Shown: positions 345 to 15,384 of the stretch, piece by piece | Layout of the letters: each line of letters begins with the position of its first letter | Numbering within the stretch: the stretch's first letter is position 1 | Origin: Massalongia carnosa | Lineage: Eukaryota | Direction: 5' to 3' | NCBI GenBank assembly: GCA_965645245.1 | Contig: OZ287080.1 | Coordinates: forward strand, 1,550,001 to 1,614,000 | Length of the DNA stretch: 64,000 nt | Notes under the pieces: model-generated | Seen by the model: the letters and a program-made list of their open reading frames with translations, nothing else | Database searches by the model: none | Told to the model about the DNA's origin: nothing | Made by a program: the position numbers and the translations under genes

Positions 345-3026
345 CTAATCCTTGCATCCCACTCCCCTCCTTCGTGCTTCTCGCACCGCGATCAAACACC
401 TTCCCACAGCCTCCAAATCGCCCAAAAGCCCCACGTGCCCCCTTTCCGTTCTCACCCTCCCTCCCTTGGTGCACTCGTATCCAACGGGCAACATGGCTGC
501 TTTGGCTAAACACACCCCATCGCCGCTGCCAAAGGCCAGGTCGTCGTAGGCATCCGCCCGCCGGATGGCATCGCGTGACGAGACACGCGCGGCGAGCACG
601 GTGGGCACCGAGGTCGAGTAGAGGATGGAGAGCGGTGGGTACTTGTTCTGGGCGGAGAGGGATGGTTGAAAGGCAAGTTCTTGTTTGAAGGCCAGAGTGG
701 AGGCGAGGGTCCGGGTGAGGTAGGAGATAGCAGCAGGGAGTGGTATGGTGCAGTGGGTTGCAGCTGAGGCTGTGCGGGTGGAGGCGGTGATCTGGGGGTC
801 GAAAGCGCGTGAGACGGGGTGGGCGATATCATCGAGTTTGGCGGCTGCGTTAGAAGCTGCAGTCCCGGTTTGTTCGAGGAGTTCCTTATAGTGGTCTCTA
901 GATGAGTTGAATGGAAGAGAAACTCGCTTCATGGGCAACGGCAAGGAAGGTAAATTGTCCGAGACGGTTTCCAAAATGCCCTTCTTCTCAGGCTGATTGG
1001 CCGCGGCTAAAGTTGGTGCTATACACGGGGAGAAAGCATGTACTTTCCAGTCTTCCACGTTAAAAAAATCCACTGGATATTCGTCCTTGGTGTGTTTGTC
1101 GATGAAACATTTCCCGTCGTCCGGTAAGAGAAGAAAACTAGTGCGAAGTGTAAAGTTCACTTGCGGTGTGAGTACTCTCGAACTTAGAAGAACGTCGTCA
1201 CCTTTTCGTAGAGGACCGAGTATATTGATACAGTGTTGTGGTGTACCGGCGTACACGACGCTTGCAAAGAGCTCTGGCCTCTGGTTGACTGCATGCCTGG
1301 TTATTAATCCTCCCAGACTGTGCGCAATGACAGTGGCTCCTCTATCCTTCTTCGGCACACCTTGCGCATTTGATGGAAGCCTTTCCAGGAACGCAATGAG
1401 TTTCCGGCTTAAAAGATGAGGACTCAAGCGCCAGTCATATCCATAATCATGGACTCTCAGCTTCGCGCCTTGAACGTTTGGGCACCCGCGGAGGCGCTTG
1501 AGTAATCTCCTGCCCATATCTACAGGTCCGATGTGAGAAAGCATGCCAGAAGGTATGATGCTCTTTTCCATATTCTCTTCATCTTCCAGTGTCAAACCAA
1601 CCTCGAGGTTCACTTTACGGATGTTAAGGCCAACTTTGACAGGAACCCATAACTGACGATGTGGAGGCTTTGCAGATCGTAACACCGAGCCCCGATAACC
1701 GCCCATGATCACTATATCTCCAGTAAGCTGTTCTAGCGCTTGGTTAAGCTGAGAAATACTGGGTTTGGGGGATTTTTGGTTTGCAACGGAGCCATGGGAG
1801 CCAGATCCATTTGGTACACACGTCTGTGACCATCCTTCGCCACGGCCGCTATGTTTGGTGGCAACATTTAGGATCCCCTCTCCAACCGACGTCGGCTTTC
1901 TCAAGTCGCTCCAGGCTCGATTTCTCATGAAATCCGGACGAAGGCTGTTGAAGTTGATACTAGGCAGACTTGGTAAGCTAGGCAGCTTGATGGTAGAATC
2001 TTGAAGGCTATCCACAACTGCTTTGAATCGACTATTGACCTGATCCTGAACATGCTCCCACCGACTATCGTCACCCAGAGTCGAGCCCAGAGAAGTAGTA
2101 TGCCTCAGTATCAACGACTGGTCAGACTGCACTCGTCGGAGCGACGTCCCTCTTGACGGACTCTGTAAAACTAAGCCTCTACGCTCTATCGAGACCTTAC
2201 TTGAATCCTTCCCGTTAGATACTAGGGGTCTTCTCGCCGGCTCGTGCACAGTGCTACAACCAGGGACCTGACAAGCTATCGCTTCATCGTTCGTCTCGTG
2301 GGCCCACTTCCTTTCTTGAACCCCGCCAGTTACGCTTGGTGATAAAGAGAAAAGTGTGCTCGCTCTTTTTGGTCTGTTCTGCGCCCCCTGCGATTGCGAA
2401 CTGTCCTTGCTTCCGCTAAAGATAGACGAGACAGCCGGGACTGAGAAGTCTTTGAGACTCATACCCCTGGGCAACGATAATACATGAAGGCTAGGCAAGA
2501 AGCGTTTAAGGTTCAAATCGGCCAGCATACCAGTCGGTCCTGCAGACGCTCGAGCTCTGGGTACCACATTTTCTTGGCTTCCGGGGTTTGCCATCGAATA
2601 GCGCTTTGGGGAGGCAGTCCATGGAGAAGGCAGGCTTAAAACCGAAGTACCAGCGTGCCTTCTAACTGCTTCACTTTCTTCCGTAATGGCGGATGGCTCC
2701 GATAAAGCTCGACCCTCTTGCGGATCAAGGGCAGAACTTTCCGGGGGGCTTCCATCCTTGGGAGCGTCGAAAAAGCCATCAATTCCTCTGCTTTCGAGTG
2801 TGATCACATCCTCTGCTGTCTGTGTCCGTGGCGACATGAGTCGTGTCTGGGCGCGACTGATGCTGACACCGATCACCGAATGTACGTCTTCCTCGTTAAG
2901 GGTGGAGTCTCCTTGAAAGCTATCCTGATCAACTTCATCATTGAGCTGGTCCAACGGCTCGTAGGGCGAACCGAGAATATCGAGCCGTAGAGACTGAGCT
3001 GCAGAAGCGGGCTCCAAAAGACCCAT
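345..3026 (-). CDS. Alpha/beta-hydrolase fold protein (LCAT/lipase-like) with long disordered N-terminus
   Basis: 893-aa ORF; nucleophile elbow AHSLGG, GGYRGS, YGYDWR, GDGVCL and terminal HVGLL typical of the fungal YJR098C-like hydrolases. Confidence 0.8.
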   Translation of the reverse strand: MGLLEPASAAQSLRLDILGSPYEPLDQLNDEVDQDSFQGDSTLNEEDVHSVIGVSISRAQTRLMSPRTQTAEDVITLESRGIDGFFDAPKDGSPPESSALDPQEGRALSEPSAITEESEAVRRHAGTSVLSLPSPWTASPKRYSMANPGSQENVVPRARASAGPTGMLADLNLKRFLPSLHVLSLPRGMSLKDFSVPAVSSIFSGSKDSSQSQGAQNRPKRASTLFSLSPSVTGGVQERKWAHETNDEAIACQVPGCSTVHEPARRPLVSNGKDSSKVSIERRGLVLQSPSRGTSLRRVQSDQSLILRHTTSLGSTLGDDSRWEHVQDQVNSRFKAVVDSLQDSTIKLPSLPSLPSINFNSLRPDFMRNRAWSDLRKPTSVGEGILNVATKHSGRGEGWSQTCVPNGSGSHGSVANQKSPKPSISQLNQALEQLTGDIVIMGGYRGSVLRSAKPPHRQLWVPVKVGLNIRKVNLEVGLTLEDEENMEKSIIPSGMLSHIGPVDMGRRLLKRLRGCPNVQGAKLRVHDYGYDWRLSPHLLSRKLIAFLERLPSNAQGVPKKDRGATVIAHSLGGLITRHAVNQRPELFASVVYAGTPQHCINILGPLRKGDDVLLSSRVLTPQVNFTLRTSFLLLPDDGKCFIDKHTKDEYPVDFFNVEDWKVHAFSPCIAPTLAAANQPEKKGILETVSDNLPSLPLPMKRVSLPFNSSRDHYKELLEQTGTAASNAAAKLDDIAHPVSRAFDPQITASTRTASAATHCTIPLPAAISYLTRTLASTLAFKQELAFQPSLSAQNKYPPLSILYSTSVPTVLAARVSSRDAIRRADAYDDLAFGSGDGVCLAKAAMLPVGYECTKGGRVRTERGHVGLLGDLEAVGRCLIAVREARRRGVGCKD

Positions 3027-11179: not shown

Positions 11180-11939
11180 TGGGATCGGGCGGATGTGTGC
11201 TAGGTGTGTGTTGCGTGAACGCCGGTTGGCCATCTACCTTTCCCTTCGGCGCCTTTAATATAGTCTAGTTTTTCCTAGTATTTTGCGAAGCGCGGTGTTG
11301 ATGAATTACCCAGTCATTGACTTGGAACGTGTAATAGGTAGGTATTTGGATCGCTTGGGGGGTGGGGGGTGTTCTACGTTCATATAGGTATCTGGGCAGC
11401 GTCGTCAGCACGGCCGGGGGGGGTTTTGCATAACGTTACATACCTTCGTTTTCTGTGCTTTCATATCTCCTCCCAAGGAATCGAGGGGGGATTTTTTTTA
11501 AGGTATTCTTTTTCTTCATGTTATTATCTAAAGTTCTGGAAACGATCAGCTTGCCACCTTCTCCACTCTTATGATACAATGGAAAAGCTTGATAGTAAAC
11601 GATCTTGCACTCGAGAGCAATGCAGTTAAATATCATTTCCTAAACAGTGCTCCTGATATTCTGAGCTCTTTTCACCGCTGAATATCAGAACTCGATACAG
11701 ATAAGACTCGAGACGGACGAGCCTACACCATCGGTCCTCCTCCTTCTACACCATCGGTCCTCACCACGGAGACGCCAAAGGCCTCACCGTGGGGCGACCG
11801 TCAAACATAGATTTGCTCCTATCTCTTCGCATCAAAACAATGCTAATTTAACGCGTTCACACGCGTCGCAGACGTACGTACGGAAGAGGATACGAAGGCC
11901 AACCGCCGGGGGGTAGAATGCGCGCGTCCCTGCACCATG

Positions 11940-12659
11940 CTTCTAAGGGTTCAAGTCCCTTCATGCAGTCATCAGCTGGAAGAAGATGTGGACCAAAGGA
12001 GCCGCATCATCCCCCACCCGGGCACAGTCGACACGCGTTCTAGCTCCTGAGAGTTCAAGTCTCCCCATGCAGTCATCAGCTGGGATCAACAGAACGCGTA
12101 AAGGCACCGGGGCGAATGCTGTCACCTCAAGAAAACTCCATCTCGGAGCAGAATAACAATATCCCATTTAATAGGCCCGGCCTGTTAAATAAAATCGAGG
12201 AAAACAAAGTCACAAAACACATAGTCATCAATCACACGTTGTACAAAGCACACAGTCACAAAGCACACAGTCACAAACATACAGTCACAAACACACAGTC
12301 ACAAAACACACAGTCACAAAAAACACAGTCACAAACCAATAACACGTCCCTGTGAAGGGGGTTCTGCGGGGGCTCGTTAAGACAGATCTGCACCCCGTTA
12401 ATATCGGAGTACATATTTTTAGAGGTTCAAGTCCTTTCTAGCAGTCATCAGCTGAAAATAATGTATTTTGACACGGGCATGGTGTGGATTTGACACGGGT
12501 AGACCTCGATGGATCACAAAACGAATGAAAAGAGTTCAGCGGAACTTCGTTAATATTGTTCTCGAAGACCTCGTTAATAAGATTTTCATAGACCTCGTTA
12601 ACAACGTTCGGTCATACTCTTAAAGGTTCAAGTCCTTTCATGCAGTCATCGGCTGAGAG
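11940..12659 (+). ncRNA. Four dispersed copies of a ~43-nt structured RNA motif (P1 stem, 5-bp stem with TTCAAGT loop, 16-nt conserved bulge)
   Basis: Copies at 11940-11982, 12045-12085, 12415-12459 and 12617-12659; loop invariant, bulge nearly invariant, stems differ in sequence but stay paired. Confidence 0.65.
12205..12335 (+). repeat. Minisatellite (ACACAGTCACAAA-like, 13-16-bp units) inside the retroelement
   Basis: About 7-8 imperfect tandem copies of CACAGTCACAAA. Confidence 0.85.
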
Positions 12660-13020
12660 CTAAAGACGTACGACACGGGTCAGCTATGTCTATCACACGG
12701 GTCTCCTTCGTCTACAACACGGAGCCCTCCGGCTGAAAGAAATAAAACATATAGACACATAGTGTAGGGTCACACCCTACACGATACAAGGGATTTGGGT
12801 TATGAAAACCATCCGATTGATGGCTACCGTGAGCAACACGGCCCGAACCGGAGTCGTACCGGGGATGGTGGAGGCAACCTAGTCATCAAATAGGACACCC
12901 TTGGGACAAGAAGAGGGCAATATACGAGGAACCCGTTAATTGATAACAGTCTAGGCCCTGAGCTAATAGACGAATTTCAAACGAGCACCCCTCCGAGTTG
13001 TCCTCGACTTGTTTTGGTTA

Positions 13021-13390
13021 GTAGGGACGGAAATCGATACTATACTGCCTGGTCAGGAGCATAGCTGTCGAAATCCCTGCGAGACATGGTCGGTTCATAA
13101 ACGGGAGACCTTTATGAATAACGCGAAGTGGGCGTAAAAAACCCGTGAGGCGTGGTATGCAATGGCGGCCACCGTACGGAGACCGTCTGCATAGCCCGAG
13201 AGGACAGTATGCGCATGTCGGTGTATATAGAGCAGGGAATGTCTATCTCGCTCGTAACGAGACCCCGTCGGTTCGCCGGCGCATGGGCTACGGCTAGACT
13301 CGCCCTTGATATATGCTTAAGGAGTAAACTGGGTTTGACCTGGGCGAAAGGGACGTCGTTCACCCCAATCGTAGAATTCATCAATAGTCT
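13021..13390 (+). ncRNA. Large multi-hairpin structured block inside the retroelement
   Basis: GTAGGGA/TCCCTGC long hairpin (13021-13080); TTCATAAA..GG-GAGA-CC..TTTATGAA (13094-13118); CGTCGG-TTCG-CCGGCG (13266-13281); TAGCCC/GGGCTA long-range pair; G-U wobbles favour the + strand. Confidence 0.5.
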
Positions 13391-13481
13391 TGGGCCGTAA
13401 AACGCACCAGTGAGATGAACGAAAACTGGGATAGAGACTTCACGAAGGAGATGTCAACTCTATTTTATCATTCTTAGTCTG

Positions 13482-14585
13482 ATTGAACCAAAAACGGACA
13501 TAAGAGTACTGGGCCTACAAATCGACACAAAACTAAAATGGGGAGCTCATATACGGAAGACGCAGGAAAAGATGACGTCGCAGTCGCTAGCGCTCACAAA
13601 AATCTCGGCATCCACCTGGGGAGCATCCTTCGCAAAGGCCCGGCAGGTCTACACCTCCGTCGTCCGCCCGGCAATGACATACGGAAGCGCCGTGTGGCAC
13701 ACGCCCAAGGAAATCAAGAAAAACAAGGCCACGATGTCCAAACTCAGTGTCATGCAGAACAAATGCCTACGCACTGTGGCAGGAGCGTTTAAAGCAACAC
13801 CCGTCGAGGTTCTCGAAGCGGAAACTTTCATCGCCCCTATGGAGCTACACTTGGATCATCTGCAGATGAAAGCAAGATACCGCCTACGGGCCTCAGGGCA
13901 AGCGAAACTGATCACCACTGCCTGCAGCACAATAGCGAACAAGCTACGAGGCAAGGCAGGACGCAAAAGAATACAACGCCCCACCCTAGGAGATTTAAAA
14001 CACGAATGGGCCAGCAAGATGCTAAACAACGAAGCCCCAGCCGCAATACCGCCGCCGCCCCGACCCTGGTCAGGACCCGACCCTGTCCGTCTCGAGAAAT
14101 ACATCACGGCACGCCGAATTATCGGAAAGCACGCAAAGACCATTACAGTACGAATCAAGGAGCGTTGGGAGACCAGGTGGAAGGCGTATCAGGACCGCGT
14201 TCCCTACCCAACAGAGGCACAGCTCGGACCACTCAACAGAACTAGATTGAAGATTCATGACAACTTGATGAAGGCGGAAAGCGCGCTAACCACGCAAATC
14301 CGCACTGAGAAAATAGGTTTGGCAAACTTCCTGTTCAATCGTCGGGTTCCGGGAGCTATGACTCCAGCTTGCTCGTGTGGCTGGCAGAAACAGACTGCCA
14401 AACACATCATATTACACTGCAGACTAATCGAAGGCAGATATGAGCTGCTCAGACAATTGGGCACCCACGACTACCGGACGATTACGCGTTCGTCGAAAAT
14501 GCTGAAAAAGCTAACTGCATGGATAATAAAAGCAAACTTGTTAACACAGTTCTCACTAGCATCGCAAATGTTATACGAGATATAA
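13482..14585 (+). CDS. 5'-truncated LINE ORF2: end of RT (thumb) plus C-terminal CCHC zinc finger; no endonuclease or RT catalytic core
   Basis: IRVLGLQIDTKLKW...STWGASFAKARQVYTSVVRPAMTYGSAVW...QNKCLRTVAGAFKATP...LEAET and CSCGWQKQTAKHIILHC, typical of fungal Tad-clade LINEs. Confidence 0.85.
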   Translation: MEPKTDIRVLGLQIDTKLKWGAHIRKTQEKMTSQSLALTKISASTWGASFAKARQVYTSVVRPAMTYGSAVWHTPKEIKKNKATMSKLSVMQNKCLRTVAGAFKATPVEVLEAETFIAPMELHLDHLQMKARYRLRASGQAKLITTACSTIANKLRGKAGRKRIQRPTLGDLKHEWASKMLNNEAPAAIPPPPRPWSGPDPVRLEKYITARRIIGKHAKTITVRIKERWETRWKAYQDRVPYPTEAQLGPLNRTRLKIHDNLMKAESALTTQIRTEKIGLANFLFNRRVPGAMTPACSCGWQKQTAKHIILHCRLIEGRYELLRQLGTHDYRTITRSSKMLKKLTAWIIKANLLTQFSLASQMLYEI

Positions 14586-15384
14586 CTTCTCATTTTCGTC
14601 AAGGATTCTAAAGAAAAACGATCACAGAGAGCAGCCTGTTGCCAGCGAGGCTCCGGAGGTAGTGCGTAGTCTACGGGGTTTTTATTCCCAAGAAGGGTTT
14701 TCCTTGTATGATAAACATAGACAGCCCGCATGGGCCGGCCTTCGGCCGGTGTCATATCGGAATAAGAATAAATCAATCAATCAATCAATCAATCTAAAGT
14801 TCTGCATGCATACATACTTACCGACCCTCCACATAAAATACCCACCTACCTAACTCACCACCCCTACGGCAAACCCTCCCCCCCAACCAACAAACCAACT
14901 AGCCATTCATCCATCCTTCCGTCTTCCCCCCCCCCCTCCCCTAACTAAACTACCTACATAACATATCTCAAACAACCAAGCCAGGCCAAAGCTTACAGAG
15001 GTGGGACGAACTGCTGCAAAGCCTAAGGGGGGGGGGGCTGCGAACTACCGAATATTCGAACGAACGAATAAATGAATGAAAAGATGGGGAAAAGGGGAAG
15101 AGTGTTTCGGAATGGAGTGGAAAATAGGGGTATACTGAATATGAGCCGGGCCGTGCTTTCTGTTCTTTTTCATTACTATTCAATTCATTTATTCATCCGT
15201 TCGTGCGTGCGTGCGTGCAAGGGGGAAGGGAAGAGGAAAAAGGAAAGGAGAGAAGGGAGCGGTAGACGCGTAGAGTATGTATATCATATGTGTATTTACA
15301 CTAAACCTATTACTCAACTAAACACCACCACCACCTCCTCTTTTTCTCTCCACTTCCCTTCCTCCCCCGCCTTAAACCAATCCC

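Follow-up and report, generated by a model that had tools for sequence, protein, structure and literature searches.

A repeated T-arm-like RNA junction in the non-coding leader of a fungal LINE composite from Massalongia carnosa

This study deals with a 64,000-nt stretch of DNA from Massalongia carnosa (GenBank assembly GCA_965645245.1, contig OZ287080.1, positions 1,550,001 to 1,614,000 of the forward strand; hereafter the window), and in particular with a retroelement whose non-coding leader carries four copies of a short RNA motif. These copies belong to a conserved family of RNA modules that occurs in leaders retrotransposed in fusion with an endonuclease/reverse transcriptase (RT) LINE (long interspersed nuclear element) of ascomycete-type fungi, and that contains a mimic of the T arm of transfer RNA (tRNA). 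The structured module is undescribed: in the literature on its 11-mer core sequence, on RNA motifs of non-LTR (long terminal repeat) elements, and on the composite elements called MINE and WEIRD, we found no description of it. A first-pass annotation of the window had put forward either a new ribozyme or a cis-acting RNA, and the comparisons presented here support the cis-RNA reading and not the ribozyme reading.

The four copies lie on the + strand (Table 1, with the cores as delimited by the first-pass annotation). Both the sequences and the positions quoted for them were confirmed in the window, and the extra outer stems reported for copies 2 and 3 are likewise present. A repeat search of the window places the copies in a single 44-nt family with 61-100% identity, and self-BLAST of the window detects no other copies. 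With a covariance model (R1), they score 63.7-65.8 bits (E ~1e-16), against 12.4 bits (E 0.57) for the runner-up in the 64 kb. The four repeats are far beyond chance. Taken alone, the 11-mer GGTTCAAGTCC is not significant, with 4 window matches (at most 1 mismatch) versus 1.14 expected and 6 of 100 shuffles reaching 4.

Relatives were sought by scanning metagenome contigs with the invariant part of the motif, which gave 35 loci (designated by L numbers below), some of them on contigs of 100-550 kb. Relaxed matching in the related loci yielded 87 occurrences with 54 distinct sequences. For the covariation analysis, 35 representatives were selected so that any two differed at more than 8 of the 94 positions; the four window copies are among them. 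The covariance model was built from this set, and it recovers 83 module matches, 53 of them distinct, in 31 metagenome loci. The module-bearing contigs are eukaryotic and of fungal type, as the window itself is eukaryotic and fungal in character, and neither 596 Gb of prokaryote genomes nor viral contigs contain a match to the module pattern. Loci with sufficiently long flanks on both sides hold two to four modules, spaced 51-730 nt apart.

On the consensus-fold model, the module is better drawn as a three-way junction formed by an outer helix, a T-arm mimic, and a mini-hairpin. It spans 55-90 nt and is composed of P1, an outer helix of variable sequence; an invariant U; P2, the T-arm mimic, with 5 bp closed by G-C and the 7-nt loop UUCAAGU; a CNNG linker; and P3, a 4-bp mini-hairpin CAGU/GCUG with the loop CAUCA, which leads directly back into P1. 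RNAalifold, run on the 35 representatives without a given structure, recovers P2, the proximal part of P1, and P3. Two details of the first-pass drawing thereby change. Its nearly invariant 16-nt bulge contains the predicted P3. Its U-G pair closing the outer stem probably does not exist, as RNAalifold pairs that G with the C of GCAG in the mini-hairpin; with the G belonging to the mini-hairpin, the invariant U is more likely a junction nucleotide.

The proposal of a conserved, covarying fold with a T-arm-like hairpin is borne out by the stems, which covary across the 35 representatives. The T stem is 96.6% paired, four of its five pairs show compensatory changes (both sides changed in 9-10 sequences each), and the fifth is G-C in 35/35. 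The loop reads UUCAAGU in 34/35, the remaining sequence having a C>U change of the kind expected from repeat-induced point mutation (RIP), and GUUCAAGUC lies within a hairpin of 5 bp and 7 nt in 34/35. The four junction-proximal pairs of P1 have 6-15 doubly changed sequences each. Over the whole structure, 83.5% of cells are paired versus 72.0 +/- 1.0 in shuffles, and 131 cells are doubly changed versus 56.5 +/- 8.1, neither value being reached in any of 500 shuffles; controls with slid partners are 39.5-53.2% paired. Mutual information over the 60 nt on either side of the motif is dominated by subfamily signal and reveals no further pairing partner. One candidate long-range partner, the segment AGCUGAUG of conserved region A (Table 1) as the complement of the conserved GCAGUCAUCAGCU, was rejected: AGCUGAUG is present in one subfamily only and pairs locally.

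The strand on which the structure acts can be read from the wobble cells, 31 of which are of the G-U type and 5 of the A-C type. The module has the sense of the LINE open reading frame (ORF) in 18/18 loci with an ORF match. Together, the G-U excess and the shared orientation point to a three-way junction of sense-strand RNA, and, at the level of sequence evolution, they and the covariation demonstrate that the fold is under selection as such.

Comparison with known families sets the module apart from them. Searches of Rfam with the window and six related loci, on both strands and at gathering as well as permissive thresholds, returned no family and chance-level matches only; on the lack of a known class, the first-pass annotation is supported as far as Rfam goes. 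The tRNA model of Rfam gives no match even at E up to 10, the sole other trace is the T-arm part of the transfer-messenger RNA model (E 0.58), and ARAGORN finds 0 tRNA genes in the window and 0 in the 31 loci. The likeness to a tRNA T arm is close, comprising a G-C-closed 5-bp stem that covaries and an invariant 7-nt loop U-U-C-A-A-G-U, in agreement with the UUCRANN motif with U1 and A5. Unlike a tRNA, however, the module has no cloverleaf, acceptor end, or anticodon arm. Its topology is reversed, in that the hairpin directly follows the 5' strand of the outer helix, and its partner hairpin, with the 5-nt loop CAUCA, does not correspond to a D-loop.

The element that carries the modules is a composite. 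A 13-nt target-site duplication (TSD) and an (ATCA)n tail mark 11539-14791 as one retrotransposed unit, the 3' part of which encodes the C-terminal third of a LINE protein: the ORF is 100% identical (99.7% by tblastn) to residues 752-1120 of P0002, a 1120-aa endonuclease and reverse-transcriptase protein found outside the window, and has no Pfam match of its own. The distance of the modules is 401-1078 nt to the element's 5' end and 0.8-1.5 kb to the leader/LINE junction; the start codon is farther away still. In the near full-length relatives L005 and L011, the order is modules, conserved non-coding regions, endonuclease, RT. The first-pass placement of the motifs in the leader of a non-LTR retroelement is upheld, and the genomic copies show that the module travels with the leader. 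The leader does not act like a plain 5' untranslated region (UTR), however; it acts like a separate RNA unit that is attached to the LINE at a fixed point.

Several observations define this fixed point. Loose ends fall precisely at 13477|13478 in contigs from four sequencing runs; ORF residues 743-751 are encoded by one contig that extends upstream of 13478, and other contigs depart from the leader at 13477 for different sequence. (The four runs were compared as contigs, and depth differences between leader and ORF, being contig depths, were not used as evidence.) The leader has an identical last nucleotide (...YCUURG|) in the window as well as in 15 loci, representing all subfamilies, whereas the LINE starts at aa 483, 625, 685, 712, 717, 752, 790, 841, 972, 986, or 1001/1002, and two copies continue from the leader into a full-length LINE. 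This amounts to 11-12 different junction partners plus the 2 full-length copies, with the pairs L001/L029 and L002/L028, identical including their flanks, counted once each. Examples of the junction, in module orientation, are found at L034 4274, L011 4095, L007 1228, L022 1220, and L035 1264. The 5' end of the leader is variably truncated as well. A 13-nt TSD surrounds the whole composite in L001; the TSD matches in L019 (8 nt) and L034 (7 nt) are weak.

By analogy with known chimeras, a fixed leader end combined with a variable LINE start is the hallmark of an RT that has switched templates to the 3' terminus of a separate RNA. Splicing was rejected as the source of the internal deletions, the deleted segments having no GU...AG at their ends, and the 'GTAAGG...CTGAC' close to the boundary belongs to a covarying hairpin. 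Site-specific insertion beside a pre-existing leader was discarded likewise, as the TSDs flank the entire composite. One locus departs from the rule: in L008 (2985-3306), a deletion begins within the leader, past the first module, and the sequence resumes at about ORF residue 310. The RT region of L008 is followed by an RNase H domain, a domain that is not in the Pfam list of P0002.

The closest architectural parallel is the MINE element of Magnaporthe, in which the full 1.1-kb non-coding WEIRD sequence is described as joined to copies of the LINE MGL that have 28 different truncation points (Gogvadze et al. 2007, PMC2104539). TSDs flank that composite, and its origin is ascribed to template switching by the LINE RT; neither a solo copy of WEIRD nor a function for it is on record (PMC2104539). 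MINE thus shares with our element a non-coding 5' unit with a fixed 3' joint to variably truncated LINEs and TSDs around the whole. On the other hand, the leader described here is longer (~1.9 kb versus 1.1 kb), is itself variably 5'-truncated, is conserved across diverged LINE subfamilies, and is highly structured; the likeness is one of architecture. A second parallel is offered by the U6-L1 chimeric retrocopies of mammals, for which joining of a fixed RNA 3' end to variable LINE truncation points is likewise described (PMC4476161). Going by that description, the 5' partner differs: here it is not a known small nuclear RNA, and it may be an integral companion of the LINE.

As for function, we tentatively read the sense-strand T-arm mimic as a unit, repeated along the leader RNA, that docks protein and helps the leader to fold, and we give this reading, which draws on sequence comparison, a little less than an even chance. 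The T-loop would dock on the loop of the mini-hairpin and so form a compact, elbow-like knob, and an array of such knobs would provide docking sites for a T-arm-recognizing protein. Candidate partners are the element's own RT or ribonucleoprotein (RNP) and host enzymes that act on T arms (Pus4/TRUB1, Trm2, or Trm6-Trm61 type). Once bound, the leader RNA would stay folded and stable within the LINE RNP and would thereby be placed at the 5' end of new copies, bringing its promoter. Invariant loops, drifting stems, free spacing, the presence of 2-4 copies, and separate structured domains fit repeated docking sites, and in a composite whose 5' unit apparently joins by a template jump, the modules would make an attractive handle for retaining the leader RNA within the RT particle.

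The recognition codes of two host enzymes bear on the choice of partner. Pus4/TRUB1 is described as recognizing GUUCNANNC in a hairpin (PMC5340967) and TRMT6/61A a GUUCRA T-loop (bioRxiv 10.1101/202747). Both codes are matched by 34/35 representatives, in sequence and in predicted hairpin, so the module is predicted to attract, at minimum, host T-arm enzymes. With the messenger RNA hairpins described for the two enzymes, it has in common GUUCNANNC or GUUCRA, a short hairpin, and a 7-nt loop. Those sites, as described, are single and scattered, whereas the module is repeated, embedded in a junction, and selected together with a second hairpin.

A number of points weigh against the docking reading. 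The partner protein is a guess; RNA-RNA docking, or contacts to the ribosome or RNase P, would suit a T-arm shape just as well. Compensatory support for P3 comes from a single pair, the outermost, which changes from C-G to G-C in 2/35 sequences, both from the one locus L030; the three other pairs never vary. The distal part of P1 is irregular and differs between subfamilies, with 45-70% of cells in five pairs unpaired (ungapped register). The shuffle-based statistics are inflated by the descent-related copies and by RIP-like transitions, and the latter could, without selection, yield some of the C>U / G>A double changes. Finally, the sense-strand folding-energy z-scores of copies 1-4 are -0.05, -2.80, -1.78, and +0.16, those of copies 1 and 4 being no better than shuffles; with thermodynamic stability this unremarkable, the case for structure rests on covariation and not on energy.

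The same features could be explained without a specific protein partner, by modules that are purely architectural and serve as knobs for folding or stability, for example against exonucleases. T-loops are common tertiary-contact motifs, and the remainder of the leader (regions A and B and the terminal module) is also structured and covarying. Nevertheless, we regard this explanation as unlikely, because loops that stay invariant while the stems diverge suggest recognition of base identity, and because freely varying copy number and spacing suit independent docking sites better than one global fold.

Unlikely to the same degree, in our estimate, is a bolder view in which the leader, neither a 5' UTR nor a stray RNA of the host, is the obligate companion RNA of the LINE lineage, making a 'two-RNA' retrotransposon with a precise 3' end, T-arm handles, and a template jump. 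Under this scenario, the 3' end of the leader (...YCUUGG) would be made at the base of the conserved terminal helix by cleavage or termination, and the T-arm junctions would act as handles for the LINE RT/RNP. The cDNA would be completed by an end-to-end template jump, which would re-attach a promoter-bearing module to otherwise dead, 5'-truncated copies.

The first-pass annotation had itself named an alternative at the level of DNA, namely an array of TFIIIC B-boxes. Extended to other factor sites with a promoter, insulator, or anti-silencing role, and with the pairing as a by-product of tRNA ancestry, this alternative has, in our judgment, rather a small chance of being correct. The B-box consensus is GGTTCGANNCC, which GGTTCAAGTCC fits, and GGTTCAAGTCC or a near variant occurs in all copies. 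The tandem 183-bp monomers of one subfamily recall promoter monomers, and the neighboring repeated boxes CGTTAATA and ACACGGGCA look like factor sites. However, the positions equivalent to tRNA 52/62 vary with compensation inside the box (G-C 22, A-U 10), and the outer helix is free to vary in sequence yet stays paired. The 31:5 excess of sense-strand G-U over A-C would be meaningless for duplex DNA, and the invariant 13-nt mini-hairpin is left unexplained. An A-box (consensus TRGCNNAGTGG) is expected 30-60 bp upstream, near the transcript start, but none of the 15 window matches (at most 1 mismatch) falls within 11539-13477, and the modules lie at least 400 nt from the 5' end of the element, which argues against a type-2 promoter of RNA polymerase III. 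The tRNA-derived heads of short interspersed nuclear elements share a B-box-like sequence in a LINE-dependent non-autonomous unit, but here there is no A box, the module is repeated and not 5'-terminal, the unit measures 1.9 kb, and the constraint is on RNA pairing. B-box and RNA roles are not mutually exclusive.

About equally improbable, in our view, is a tRNA-elbow mimic that addresses the machinery of translation or tRNA processing, such as the ribosomal L1 stalk/E site (assisting a possibly uncapped RNA in the manner of an internal ribosome entry site), RNase P/Z, or tRNA export/import factors. The invariant T-loop sequence and closing pair would suit such a role, the three-way junction could show an elbow-like face, and in the full-length L005 and L011, the modules lie upstream of the ORF. 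Yet the strand topology is the reverse of an acceptor/T-arm minihelix, with a continuous 5' strand and the insertion on the 3' side. There is no acceptor end, in keeping with the ARAGORN result, the modules are far from the leader/LINE junction and farther from the start codon, and most copies have modules without an intact ORF.

We consider it very unlikely that each module is a new small self-cleaving ribozyme cutting the leader transcript. This idea is prompted by the compact junction with invariant loop nucleotides in the 5' region of a retroelement, by the failure to match a known family, and by the antisense strand, which reads CUGAUGA. HDV (hepatitis delta virus)-like ribozymes sit at the 5' ends of R2, RTE, and L1Tc, and hammerheads occur in Penelope-like elements. 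What our module shares with these ribozymes is a structured RNA located toward the 5' side of a non-LTR element, as described for L1Tc (PMC3185411, PMC3383444). It differs from them in being multi-copy, not 5'-terminal, and retained with upstream sequence in new insertions, and in being a simple junction without a double pseudoknot or hammerhead core.

The copies themselves speak to the matter. The TSD-flanked copy of the window keeps all four modules and 401 nt upstream of the first, and in the 183-bp subfamily, 8 distinct 5' ends (2119, 2130, 2131, 2142, 2290, 2313, 2593, and 2630 in L002 coordinates, with the first module core at 3001) all lie 370-880 nt upstream of the first module, 2-4 modules being retained. 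No module occupies the element's 5' end, and none of these 8 end positions falls at a hairpin. As modules and upstream sequence are inherited together in genomic copies, the template RNAs were apparently uncut at the modules, which argues against efficient self-cleavage; slow, regulated, or conditional cleavage is possible. An HDV-like ribozyme is contradicted by the position of the modules, 401-1078 nt from the 5' end with upstream sequence kept, and by the lack of an Rfam match, and a hammerhead has no Rfam match on either strand. The antisense CUGAUGA was examined as a hammerhead and rejected, as it is followed by neither helix II nor GAAA, and the wobble pairs, which mark the sense strand, make it irrelevant. 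The 'new ribozyme' call, tempting but unsupported, has therefore been removed.

Lastly, a functionless relic of a tRNA fragment, captured by template switching and hitch-hiking in the leader, is extremely improbable: the T-arm sequence is of ordinary tRNA type, its 11-mer occurs in papers that include some on tRNA genes or tRNALys3, and LINE RTs are reported to capture cellular RNAs (PMC2104539), but across subfamilies with ORFs only 35-57% identical, two helices show compensatory changes, the loops stay invariant, and 2-4 copies are retained.

Table 1. Features of the composite element in the window
Feature	Position	Strand	Basis and remarks
Target-site duplication, upstream copy ATCTAAAGTTCTG	11526..11538	+	Same 13 nt at 14792-14804; contigs of two runs break at 11541
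Leader, non-coding: four hairpins, regions A, B, C, terminal helix module	11539..13477	+	Homologous leaders in metagenome loci; contig ends at 13477|13478; TSD sets 5' end
17-nt core x2 in 23-nt tandem repeat	11723..11762	+	Repeat search; near leader 5' end
T-arm junction module copy 1	11933..11989	+	Covariance model R1 65.6 bits, E 1.6e-16; core 11940-11982
T-arm junction module copy 2	12037..12093	+	R1 63.7 bits; fold z -2.80; core 12047-12086
Copy 2 extended outer stem ACGCGTTCT/AGAACGCGT	12034-12042 and 12091-12099		
~15-nt tandem array, ACACAGTCACAAA-like, about nine units	12197..12340	+	Repeat search; between modules 2 and 3
T-arm junction module copy 3	12409..12465	+	R1 63.9 bits; core 12414-12458; extra stem TACAT/ATGTA
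T-arm junction module copy 4	12610..12666	+	R1 65.8 bits; core 12617-12659; mini-hairpin loop variant CAUCG
Conserved region A, covarying hairpins	12755..12911	+	blastn 71-81% identity to 26 loci and alignment
Conserved region B, larger structured RNA	13010..13250	+	blastn 67-77% identity to 24 loci
Terminal module, nested helices	13417..13477	+	Alignment of 7 leader ends shows covariation; ends at fixed junction
LINE ORF C-terminal third, aa 752-1120, including stop codon	13478..14585	+	tblastn of P0002
LINE 3' UTR and (ATCA)n tail	14586..14791	+	Sequence, depth profile
Target-site duplication, downstream copy	14792..14804	+	Directly after tail; identical to 11526-11538

The modules are not the only structured part of the leader. 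Regions A and B retain 67-81% DNA identity between lineages whose ORFs share 33-57%, are thus conserved more strongly than the ORF, and have no Rfam match; in region B, compensatory changes occur at 25 of the 60 pairs that RNAalifold predicts. Possibly, the two regions form a larger novel RNA domain. In the terminal module, the last 6 nt (UCUUAG) pair with an upstream CUGGGA, and this closing helix encloses the helices ATAGAG/CUCUAU and CUUC/GAAG, all of which covary with their counterparts in other subfamilies. The terminal helix recurs across subfamilies, the last 5-6 nt pairing, with compensatory changes, with a CCAAGG-like segment upstream of a nested hairpin. The unit number of the leader's 5'-proximal tandem repeat varies among other copies (contig joints that 'goes back 34/40', loose ends at 11723/11762), and the array between modules 2 and 3 was not seen in the related loci inspected.

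In one subfamily, the module sits within one to three tandem 183-bp monomers (L034 2921-3469; also L001, L002, L011, L013, L019, L021, and L027). Mouse L1 has tandem promoter monomers, of which the 183-bp array is reminiscent. This subfamily has an extra, diverged module ~330 nt downstream with the loop variant CACCG. Its copies (L001-L034) differ mainly by C>T and G>A, as expected of fungal RIP, and several such RIP-like changes strike the invariant loop (UUUAAGU) or the junction (CCTTAG).

Short repeated boxes accompany the modules as well. Every module has CGTTAATA-like boxes before it and one to three (G/C)ACACGGG(C/T)A boxes after it, and the same holds in related loci. In the window, CGTTAA boxes lie at 12396-12404, 12545-12552, 12571-12578, and 12594-12601, and ACACGGG boxes at 12466-12474, 12489-12496, 12673-12680, and 12695-12702. 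Within the repeat unit, these boxes could serve to bind proteins or transcription factors. The element is inserted downstream of a gene for a CDP-alcohol phosphatidyltransferase, and a PP2C phosphatase gene is also nearby.

The module adds an undescribed and well-supported entry to the few conserved cis-RNAs of non-LTR retrotransposons, one in which mimicry of the tRNA T arm is used in a new topology. The non-coding 5' partner of MINE-like composites appears here as a conserved, highly structured RNA present in several diverged lineages and not as an anonymous transcript. Should the companion-RNA scenario be true, it would also explain the WEIRD part of the Magnaporthe MINE elements.

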